From positions 64,001-128,000 of IMG/VR virus record IMGVR_UViG_3300049044_000033: 64,000 bases of DNA; one strand, written 5' to 3'. This DNA comes from a virus (taxonomy: Duplodnaviria; Heunggongvirae; Uroviricota; Caudoviricetes). Of this stretch, positions 9,215 to 61,643 are shown one piece after another. Numbering within the stretch: position 1 is the first letter of the stretch; every line of letters starts with the position of its first letter. A program made the position numbers and the translations under genes. The notes below the pieces were generated by a model, which was not told where the DNA came from, searched no databases, and worked only from the letters and a program-made list of their open reading frames with translations.

Positions 9215-9415
9215 TAGATACAACAATGGCCCTACGTTTCCGCAGAGCCATTGGGTTAGAGTGCTATTTAAGTGCGGCCTGAGTAGCTGCCATCTAGGCG
9301 CCTTCTCATCCGCTTGTCGCCGGTTTCTATCACAAAAGTTTCAAAGCCAACTGTTAAATCTTACGCACTCTTACCTCCTTCGCTCTGTTGATCCGCTTAT
9401 TGCGTTGTGTCTACA
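9215..9415 (-). ncRNA. candidate structured ncRNA 1 (~200 nt)
   Basis: Own TTGACA/TATAGT promoter, no substantial ORF, long-range stems and a 13-bp GAAA-capped hairpin (9224-9253). Confidence 0.55.
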
Positions 9416-9452
9416 CCCTGGACTATAAAGGGTAAGTCCAGGGTGTCAACCA
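9413..9452 (-). promoter_or_regulatory. promoter with 12-bp perfect inverted repeat over the -10 box
   Basis: acaccctggact (9413-9424) / agtccagggtgt (9435-9446). Confidence 0.8.
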
Positions 9453-9815: not shown

Positions 9816-10163
9816 TTAATTGACGGTTGCGCCCAAAAACCGCAAGGTGCGCTGGAATTCTTCAGCCCAGTCTGCCGTCACTGCGCGCTGCTCGCGCATC
9901 ACGAGAACCAGCGTTTCTTGAGCCTGCAAGCGACGAACCCAAGTGCGAGGGATCCGCATACCGGCCTTGATCTTGCCATCGATGCGCTTGATCAAATCAT
10001 AGCAGTCATCAGCGACTTGACGAAGTTCCTGGCTTTCCGGACCAGTATCGACGACCAGCTTGTCGCCCTCTACTTTGTAATGCGGGTAGTTGCGAATGAT
10101 CGCAAAGCACATCTTTGCCTGGTTCAGCATGTAGGGGACATAGGTGCCTTCAAACTGTGCCAT
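9816..10163 (-). CDS. hypothetical protein
   Basis: RBS/promoter module. Confidence 0.75.
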   Translation of the reverse strand: MAQFEGTYVPYMLNQAKMCFAIIRNYPHYKVEGDKLVVDTGPESQELRQVADDCYDLIKRIDGKIKAGMRIPRTWVRRLQAQETLVLVMREQRAVTADWAEEFQRTLRFLGATVN

Positions 10164-10265
10164 CTTTCGATCTCCTTGTTTGCTGTCTACTCACCTGTTT
10201 TAGCACATAGGTGAGCAGCGTCAACCAGTTTTTGGATTATTTCTGCTCGCGATCAATTTCGCTGA
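10155..10265. repeat. ~110-bp near-identical duplicate of 40550-40660
   Basis: Same gene 3' end (SEIDREQK*), promoter, RBS and ATG GCA CAG start. Confidence 0.9.
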
Positions 10266-22319: not shown

Positions 22320-22377
22320 TGTCGATCTCCTGTTGTCTTGCCACCACTTTATAGGAAAGGTGAGGAGTGTCAACCAA

Positions 22378-22407
22378 AATAATGGGGAGGGTTTCCCCTC
22401 CCCATTT
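22378..22407 (-). terminator. intrinsic terminator
   Basis: AUGGGGAGGG-GAAA-CCCUCCCCAU followed by UAUUUU. Confidence 0.8.
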
Positions 22408-22578
22408 GATCTTTCACCAGCTTCGCGGGCCTACCGTCTTCAGCACCCTTATCCGATCCGCGTTAACTCACTAAGGTGTTAATACCACGACTTGCGACGG
22501 ACACCTTAGTTCTGCAGCTGGCGCCTCCAAGCCCAAGATCAGCGGACTTTTGAAAGGATCCGGGGGCACCGAAACAAC
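22378..22578 (-). ncRNA. candidate structured ncRNA 2 (~200 nt)
   Basis: Own promoter (22585-22612) and terminator (22378-22407); no RBS module or ORF; nested stems. Confidence 0.65.
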
Positions 22579-22615
22579 TTAATTGGTTTAGCAACTTTTT
22601 AGGTAGAGTCAACAC

Positions 22616-60065: not shown

Positions 60066-61643
60066 TTAACAACTTTCCTCGACTGTATATTGGCGCAATA
60101 GACCAATGGTGTTTTCCAAACCATAGGCTTCGACGAATGCGCCGAACCTCGGACCATCGCTCGAACCAAGTAGACATTCATAAAGTGCCTGGAACCAGGA
60201 GCGTAGAGGAGAAAAGTTATGTGCCTTTCCTACTTCATAGACTTGGAACTGGAAATGCTCAGCTGACATATTGGGCACCATGCCCTCTAGTCGATTAGCT
60301 AGGTCTTCAAACGCAGCTCGCTCTTGTTCCGTTGGTGCTCGACAATCGCGATCATACAATCCACAATCAGCAGCATAGCGACAAACCCGCTCAGCTAGTG
60401 AATTAAGGATGACCTTTTCACTGTGAACTAGTCCCCGACTAGTTGCTAGATAGGCCAACAAGGTCTTGGCATCCCGACTCTGACTCACAATAGCTAGGTT
60501 GAGAAGGAGGCCAAAGTTTACATTTTCGACCGTTCGCCAGCCAGTATAGGTTGCCCTCCAGAACCAACTTGCGTCGTTGGGAGAAGGCTCACCTTGCTCC
60601 TTCAACTTGATCGCCGTATCCTCATTTTGAGGAACAAGGTTAATATGGAGAGGCTTGGCAGCCTTGGGGTTCTGGAACAGGAAGGTCATCAGAGATTCCT
60701 TGGAACCATAGGTCAGCCACTCCTCCATCGAGAAGCCATTGCCTACAGTCTTGCTGATCTTCTTGCCCTCTGCGTCAAGGAAGAGCTCGTAGGTCATTCC
60801 AGCCGGAGGGGTCCCGCCAAGAATGCGACAAATCTTTGCTGACGCCTTTACGGAATCGATAAGGTCCTTGCCTGACATTTCATAGTCCACATCAAAGTGG
60901 ACCCAGCGCATTGCCCAGTCGACCTTCCACTGAAGCTTGGTCTGGCCATCGTGGATGCTGAGTGCAGCGCCATCGAGGGAGTCCAAAACGATATAGCCAG
61001 GATGGTCATCCAGCTTAACGCCACAATCAATGACCTTGCTACCAATAACCGGCATGAAGGGGCTATAGGCGGCACGACGCTCCTCACCTAAAGTGGGCAG
61101 CATTACAGCCTGAATCTTATCGTAATTGTCCCACACGCGATCCAGCATAGCATTAAACTTGCCGGCCTTGTAATACTCAGTTGAGCTCACAAAGGAAACA
61201 CGCGAACGTTCAGGGGATGAGCCGACTTGACTACCATCATAGTCCTTCAGGATATCATCCACAAATTCCAAGAGCTTCATGTTATTGTCGGATGCGAATG
61301 TGCCAGAACTCAAAGGGTCTGGACTGGGCACAGATGACAGCGGCTTACCTAAGTGGTCATTCATCCACTCGGGCAATCCTTCAGGGACCTTCCGCATTGC
61401 GTCATAGTCGTCAGAGAACAAGATCAGACGAGTCTTGTAGGCAGATTCCGTAAGGGTATCAAATGCCTTCATAACCCAAAGGGTGCGGATCACTTCTGCG
61501 AACGTGCCAATATGCGGAGGACCGGAGGGTCCATATCCTGTCTCGAAGGTCACAACGTCGCCAGGCTTCTTCCCCTTGCGCTCGATATGAGCCAATAGGG
61601 TTCGGGCTTCCTGAAAGGGCCACGATCGAGCCGGTTCTGTCAC
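60066..61643 (-). CDS. lysS: class I lysyl-tRNA synthetase
   Basis: SWPFQEAR, FETGYGPSGPPHIGTF (HIGH), KLQWKVDWAMRW, YEMSGKDL, KISKT (KMSKS), GPRFGAF. Confidence 0.92.
   Translation of the reverse strand: MTEPARSWPFQEARTLLAHIERKGKKPGDVVTFETGYGPSGPPHIGTFAEVIRTLWVMKAFDTLTESAYKTRLILFSDDYDAMRKVPEGLPEWMNDHLGKPLSSVPSPDPLSSGTFASDNNMKLLEFVDDILKDYDGSQVGSSPERSRVSFVSSTEYYKAGKFNAMLDRVWDNYDKIQAVMLPTLGEERRAAYSPFMPVIGSKVIDCGVKLDDHPGYIVLDSLDGAALSIHDGQTKLQWKVDWAMRWVHFDVDYEMSGKDLIDSVKASAKICRILGGTPPAGMTYELFLDAEGKKISKTVGNGFSMEEWLTYGSKESLMTFLFQNPKAAKPLHINLVPQNEDTAIKLKEQGEPSPNDASWFWRATYTGWRTVENVNFGLLLNLAIVSQSRDAKTLLAYLATSRGLVHSEKVILNSLAERVCRYAADCGLYDRDCRAPTEQERAAFEDLANRLEGMVPNMSAEHFQFQVYEVGKAHNFSPLRSWFQALYECLLGSSDGPRFGAFVEAYGLENTIGLLRQYTVEESC

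Follow-up and report, generated by a model that had tools for sequence, protein, structure and literature searches.

A separately encoded RNA with three predicted pseudoknots among the small genes of a jumbo phage

The DNA analysed here, referred to as the window, comprises 64,000 nucleotides of IMG/VR virus record IMGVR_UViG_3300049044_000033 and corresponds to bases 64001-128000 of a complete phage genome (G000) of 462,455 bp with direct terminal repeats. The region of interest is a row of small minus-strand genes, most of which carry their own copy of a module consisting of a promoter and a Shine-Dalgarno (SD) sequence. Sixty-three module promoter sites were located on the minus strand of the window, 54 of them followed by an SD and a start codon. 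The other nine include the promoter of the element discussed below, an RNA unit at 22612-22374 (minus strand) that is made up of a promoter, a structured core of 163 nt, and an intrinsic terminator (Table 1). The next gene has its own promoter, beginning at 22373, directly behind the RNA terminator. Transcription of the RNA would start near 22578, and we infer a discrete transcript of approximately 200 nt.

A first-pass annotation, made by inspection of the window, had proposed a stand-alone RNA with a module-type promoter lacking a ribosome binding site, a strong terminator, and no open reading frame (ORF). The promoter is found where it had been placed, on the minus strand, with neither SD nor start codon behind it, and the terminator is a hairpin with a U-rich tail (Table 1). 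The statement on coding content holds for conserved ORFs, but not literally: a 50-aa GTG ORF (22463-22615) overlaps the promoter, is not preceded by an SD, and is unconserved, and no reading frame is common to the 15 copies of the RNA that were compared. These same copies bear out the stand-alone character of the unit, since all 15 possess promoter and terminator signals of their own. The -35 box lies 39-44 nt upstream of helix A in every copy, even where it falls inside the end of the upstream ORF, and a terminator hairpin of variable sequence followed by a U-rich tail stands behind each core.

The comparison rests on 14 homologues found in related phage contigs, which are 58-77% identical to the window copy; the 15 distinct copies, the latter included, share 53-82% pairwise identity. 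Two homologues (75% and 72% identical to the window copy) were obtained from IMG/VR terminase relatives, those of L098, L103, L135, and L136 through DNA pattern searches, and those of L112, L121, L122, L124, L126, and L130, together with two tandem copies in L127, from contigs encoding relatives of the upstream Y00F-family protein. The two L127 copies (1938-2107 and 2744-2919) are divergent and each has its own promoter and terminator; in the first of them helices A/B, D, and J have replaced sequences.

Comparison of the copies shows a predicted fold built on a three-way junction (F, K/G, H), two arms of which are locked loop to loop by helix J, while both ends of the RNA are paired. Pseudoknot 1 brings the 5′ end (A, 7 bp; B, 4 bp) into the H loop, pseudoknot 2 joins the D loop to the 3′ end (helix E), and pseudoknot 3 connects the first part of the G loop with the last part of the H loop (helix J). 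All four stems of the first-pass annotation were located in this fold and are supported in the homologues. The annotation had also described a pairing of the 5′ end as either a pseudoknot or an alternative fold. It is the pseudoknot that survives, with 7 of the 10 proposed pairs conserved and the outer three not; the alternative fold does not. Missing from the annotation were one hairpin, the short helix at the junction, and the pairing between two loops, and the predicted pseudoknots total three.

In an alignment of 12 copies the model comprises 43 pairs in 8 helices. Covariation, which had been suggested as a check on the RNA, is found in the form of compensatory changes, 15 of the pairs having changed on both sides. 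The structure model was drawn by eye from the aligned sequences, which makes controls with slid partners lenient; with partners slid by 1-3 columns, 30-44% of cells are paired, versus 99.0% in the model. RNAalifold, applied to the 12 copies, recovers D, F, K, and H, and three crossing helices were added to reach the 43 pairs. Joint changes, at least two per pair on the tree, were counted for 20 of 6002 pairs of variable columns; 13 of the 20 belong to the model, with A, B, and E represented; pair 63-85 in hairpin C/D changes together five times. Two-sided changes affect five of the eight pairs of helix F, and helix K is near-invariant. For F, H, A/B, E, and G the strands of one copy pair better with each other than with those of other copies (0 of 20,000 permutations, relatedness uncorrected). 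Helix J, with one joint-change event on the tree, is the weakest-supported helix; its own strands are also preferred over those of other copies (p 0.0065, relatedness uncorrected), and the hairpin G/J region has 6.1 cognate versus 3.8 non-cognate pairs.

The helices persist in three divergent copies that were not part of the alignment, and two of the copies, L135 and L136, came to light after the model had been fixed. L136 and L127b possess uninterrupted A/B helices of 10-11 bp with different sequence, and in L127b helix J is replaced wholesale by six other Watson-Crick pairs. Helix F of L136 contains a one-base bulge. Helix C is possible in most copies with shifts in register, and is less certain. 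In L103 a hairpin of 40 nt has been inserted at the C/D bulge, and this site therefore lies on the surface. The H loop is 29-31 nt long in 13 copies and 25-27 nt in the two most divergent ones. Approximately 50 positions are near-invariant, and these are grouped at the F-K-H junction, in helices A and D, and in the A-rich linkers. Helices E and J (22543-22535 and 22500-22494) share a similar loop motif, with a short helix and an A-rich bulge beneath both hairpins, a likeness that hints at an internal duplication.

The folding energy of the single window sequence is modest in comparison with shuffled sequences (z -2.05 and -1.99). Its minimum-energy folds were rejected as models of the RNA, helices F and H being missed or mispaired in them. 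Also discarded was a short hairpin in the H loop which is favoured by single-sequence folding; it is broken in L112, where helix J takes its place. Given the homologues, a chance origin of the fold is untenable, and the element is almost certainly a functional structured RNA.

Table 1. Features of the RNA unit and of the gene upstream of it, in window coordinates.
Feature	Position	Strand	Details
Upstream gene, 147 aa	22616..23059	-	PF26820 Phage_T4_Y00F / phrog_1106; syntenic landmark, outside the RNA
Promoter, module-type, sigma70-like	22585..22612	-	-35 at 22612-22607, 16-nt spacer, -10 at 22590-22585
Helices A and B, 5′ strand of pseudoknot 1	22560..22570	-	A 22570-22564, B 22563-22560; 100% of cells paired, 3 pairs two-sided
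Hairpin C/D	22524..22557	-	C 22557-22553 with 22528-22524 (3-5 bp, less certain), bulge, D 22549-22543 with 22535-22529
Helix E, 5′ strand in D loop, pseudoknot 2	22540-22537	-	
Helix F, 5′ strand, and junction helix K	22513..22523	-	F 22523-22516 (8 bp), K 22515-22513
Variable hairpin G	22470..22510	-	22510-22501 with 22479-22470
Helix J, 5′ strand, start of G loop	22500-22496	-	Pseudoknot 3; variable loop after
K 3′ strand, junction strand, H 5′ strand	22458..22468	-	K 22468-22466, 3-nt junction strand 22465-22463, H 22462-22458; near-invariant positions
H loop, 29 nt	22429..22457	-	3′ strands of B (22456-22453), A (22448-22442), J (22438-22434)
3′ strands of H, F, and E	22408..22428	-	H 22428-22424, F 22422-22415, A-rich linker, E 22411-22408
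Intrinsic terminator	22374..22406	-	11-pair hairpin 22406-22381 and U-rich tail

A search with an RNA model revealed one copy in G000 and one each in the relatives G001, G004, and G007; the complete relative G005, Sinorhizobium phage Phosso, and Agrobacterium phage Atu_ph07 yielded none. The terminase of G005 is 92% identical to that of G000 over residues 82-527. In several loci the flanking genes are the same but the RNA is missing, indicating that it has been gained or lost there. On the genomes compared it is thus an accessory module of one jumbo-phage clade, because it is absent from the close complete relative, from Phosso and Atu_ph07, and from these same-flank loci; its pattern of gain and loss resembles that of the small protein modules around it. 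The Y00F-family gene upstream also occurs in loci without the RNA, as does an 87-aa gene that is often found downstream. The downstream gene varies between copies and is convergent in L112, and a different gene stands upstream in L121, L122, L127, and L130.

Beyond these phages, exact and loose patterns gave 0 and 17 matches, respectively, in GTDB bacterial genomes, none of which scored as the RNA. The RNA model found nothing in 151 Alphaproteobacteria, a weak test in which only 18 candidates were scored per genome. Fourteen further loose pattern matches in viral sequences were all negative as copies of the RNA, and a blastn search of 50,697 phage records with the RNA as query returned only two short chance-level matches, one of them on the terminator. 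Three matches to a pattern taken from the variable stem were set aside as unrelated, as was a second 16-nt match in G000 at 330489, which reads as coding sequence. Weak profile matches in G005 and G007 are likewise coding sequence, without promoter or terminator.

The covariance models of Rfam 15, those of ROOL, GOLLD, raiA, riboswitches, RNase P, SRP, and 6S included, gave no match in the window at the gathering threshold and none on the homologues; at E<=10 only weak matches appear, on the terminator or the promoter. The first-pass annotation had not recognised a family, and with no match in this Infernal-type search the novelty of the RNA stands. ARAGORN detects neither tRNA nor tmRNA in it. 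Fremin et al. 2023 report 8495 IMG/VR viral candidates of 29-151 nt (PMC10690425), from which it follows that at most a fragment of the RNA could be among them. We found no description of the RNA in the literature, where the unnamed candidates of PMC10690425 could include such a fragment. Individual likenesses were examined and rejected. An HDV-like ribozyme is contradicted by the position of the A 3′ strand, which lies inside the H loop and is followed by S-A-A, rather than after P3 with GG, and Rfam gives no match. A hammerhead would require CUGANGA and GAAA cores around three stems, but the CUGAAGA of the window copy is CUCAAGA in the majority of homologues, and its bases take part in helices A and J. 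Retron, DRT, or DGR RNAs were dismissed in that no PF00078 (reverse transcriptase) match is present in the complete G000 genome. Other likenesses (P4 of RNase P; TPP, glycine, and c-di-AMP riboswitches; pistol; glmS; K-turns) are not kept across the homologues and receive no support from Rfam. The RNA is a real and undescribed family with an unusually dense fold.

The terminase of G000 is 63% identical to that of Phosso and 55% identical to that of Atu_ph07. Its glutamyl-tRNA synthetase (GluRS, encoded just ahead of the window) and ClpA have alphaproteobacterial proteins as their closest relatives, and for this reason the host is likely to belong to the Alphaproteobacteria, probably to those of soil type. 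ARAGORN predicts 62 tRNA genes in G000, and the structured RNA is located among the small-gene modules, well away from the tRNA cluster. Three of the tRNA genes (153582, 185829, and 394833) have CUA anticodons; these are amber-reading and are labelled Pyl by ARAGORN. A class I lysyl-tRNA synthetase-like gene is located at window 60066-61472 (minus strand), and its sole match in the phage records is from a haloarchaeal virus (25%). Two other units with a promoter and no SD were observed. The first, at window 9215-9452 (minus strand; G000 73449), includes a terminator and spans about 200 nt; it has a close counterpart in G001 at 361931, and the model of the triple-pseudoknot RNA does not match the window unit. 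The second lies outside the window at G000 191024 (plus strand), within the tRNA cluster and on the strand opposite the tRNA genes, with a terminator-like hairpin about 175 nt further on; it also occurs at G001 9620, its start being conserved in both genomes.

What the RNA does may be considered from its transcription, its distribution, and its shape. It appears to be a separately transcribed accessory RNA that acts in trans, and the reading we tentatively favour is that of an early, nuclease-stable RNA of about 200 nt which binds and titrates a host RNA-binding factor. The host RNA polymerase would make it early, from the type of promoter used by the surrounding small genes; with both ends buried, it could resist exonucleases and accumulate; and the invariant junction and A-rich loops would provide a shape-specific surface for a host RNA-binding protein or complex. 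The decay machinery or an RNA-sensing defence factor are candidate targets, and the RNA might be useful in only some hosts. Shape rather than pairing with a target is favoured because the loop lengths are fixed, some 50 positions are near-invariant, and the variable loop has no complement in its own genome above the level of shuffled sequences. Nor does any phage partner stand out: Ro60 is encoded by genomes without the RNA as well, G000 has no reverse transcriptase, and none of the neighbouring genes is restricted to loci carrying the RNA. If this titration of a host factor is correct, RNA would join the small genes by which jumbo phages take over their hosts.

Several observations weigh against it. 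The bacterial genome searches disclosed no host RNA open to mimicry, and the conserved junction would be just as expected of a catalytic centre or of one that binds a ligand. The promoter type is the only ground for calling the RNA early. A distant phage partner is also possible: when the G000 ORFs were sorted by presence and absence, 59 candidates were left, a large share of which are shadow ORFs, and a single close and complete genome served as the negative.

An unlikely proposal, though one compatible with a host-factor decoy, is that the RNA forms an RNA-only oligomer in which E and/or J are intermolecular, giving dimers or rings as in OLE, ROOL, and GOLLD. Covariation cannot separate pairs within a molecule from pairs between molecules, and in GOLLD and ROOL such covarying pairs turned out to bridge molecules (PMC12286853). 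The link between F and E is only about 3 nt long, while C and D together measure 10-12 bp, or ~31 A in a straight A-form stack, so that E can form within one molecule only if the RNA bends sharply or F is not coaxial. E and J, moreover, use a similar loop motif and partner. The estimate of the geometry is crude, however, and the difficulty disappears if the RNA bends at the C/D bulge or packs side by side. A palindrome in the D loop, as would suit a symmetric kiss, is present in only 6 of the 15 copies and covaries with the 3′ end; the symmetric kiss is thus unconserved.

Rather unlikely, too, is a new compact class of catalytic or self-assembling RNA, perhaps derived from a permuted group I core, that the phage would express as a free gene to act on host RNA or to disable an RNA-binding defence of the host. 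Small size, three pseudoknots, and an invariant junction are typical traits of ribozymes. In its catalytic form the idea is quite improbable: the RNA would be a ribozyme of a new class, or the exon-less, rearranged relic of a group I intron core in which F corresponds to P4, K to P6, the 3-nt junction to J6/7, H to P7, and A/B to P3. Judged by eye, the junction is like P4-P6-J6/7 of the Rfam Intron_gpI consensus, and the 3′ strand of B/A comes after the 5′ strand of H in the way that P3 comes after P7. Again by eye, this RNA and the group I core (RF00028) have in common a short G.U/C-G helix with another helix stacked upon it, an internal loop rich in A, and a strand of 3 nt leading into the next helix, behind which the pseudoknot's 3′ strand follows. 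Helix A begins with a G.U pair in 11 of 12 copies, and a group I intron is present in the relative G005. A profile of the permuted RNA, however, failed to detect the group I introns of G005, Atu_ph07, and T4 in 2.25 Mb, and scores for the P/Q/R/S motifs equal those of shuffled sequences in 14 of 15 copies, one copy exceeding them (p 0.04, uncorrected). H is a contiguous 5-bp helix without a bulge, its second pair, at the would-be guanosine site, being G-C or A-U (A-U in 4 of 15 copies). P1, P9, internal guide, terminal G, and exons are all lacking from what is an intergenic unit between a promoter and a terminator. Nor is there an evident substrate, G005 having 59 tRNA genes without the RNA. 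An actual group I intron was rejected on the permuted strand order, the missing P7 bulge, and the motif scores at shuffle level. If catalysis were demonstrated, the RNA would constitute a new ribozyme class. Group I introns themselves were located in L272 at 1501-1717 (G005 9999-10215) and in L271 (Atu_ph07 112959-113220), with none over threshold in G001, G004, or Phosso.

Jumbo-phage TROVE proteins have been proposed to work with a tRNA-like partner (PMC7824862), and a Y-RNA-like role beside the phage Ro60 (TROVE) protein is very unlikely for the present RNA. G000 does encode Ro60, no YrlB-type RNA was found in this genome, and no Y RNA family was detected beside ro60. The RNA is, however, located about 220 kb from ro60, and Ro60 is present in G005, Phosso, and Atu_ph07, which are without the RNA. 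The 5′ and 3′ ends do not pair together, there is no tRNA-like domain, and helix D differs in sequence in L135, L136, and L127b. The ro60 gene itself (G000 307431-309113; L004 6932-8614, minus strand) is conserved in each of the five relatives examined, Phosso and Atu_ph07 among them.

In most loci the RNA lies between co-directional genes, with its terminator following at once, and it might therefore be read as a riboswitch or attenuator of the downstream gene, or as a 3′ element of the upstream one. We consider such a cis element highly improbable. In most copies the next gene is equipped with a promoter of its own behind the terminator, and in L112 it is convergent; the genes on both sides differ between copies, and no conserved antiterminator was seen. 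A scaffold displaying the G loop as a guide or antisense sequence, to which the variable loop of 11-17 nt on a conserved scaffold and the two divergent tandem L127 copies might point, has very little probability, as in four phages the best match of this loop to its own genome spans 10-12 nt, a length that shuffled loops reach too.

Among known RNAs, the flavivirus xrRNA also combines a three-way junction with a 5′ end paired into the fold and a further pseudoknot lock. This likeness suggests protection of the ends, by analogy only. The xrRNA has another order of helices, whereas the RNA described here has its 3′ end paired as well, forms its own transcription unit, and belongs to a DNA phage. 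Compact RNAs with three covarying pseudoknots are, to our knowledge, rare, and those that have been solved are mostly ribozymes, riboswitches, IRES elements, or nuclease blocks. ROOL, GOLLD, and raiA are similar in that they are stand-alone, knotted, and of open function; the present RNA belongs to none of them. The solved ROOL and GOLLD RNAs measure 659 and 833 nt and are often found near tRNA islands (PMC12286853), compared to a core of 163 nt here with no Rfam match. The raiA motif RNA (205 nt) is of similar size, compact, and pseudoknotted, and its mechanism is unknown (PMC12286853, PMC10861870). It is, however, a widespread bacterial RNA, whereas ours has been found only in phage contigs and yields no cmscan match. 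The RNA is small enough to be transcribed and solved directly, and 15 natural variants, including minimal and insertion forms, are at hand. Together with the natural pairs of phages with and without it, these offer a tractable test of the roles of orphan phage RNAs, a question that is still open for ROOL and GOLLD.
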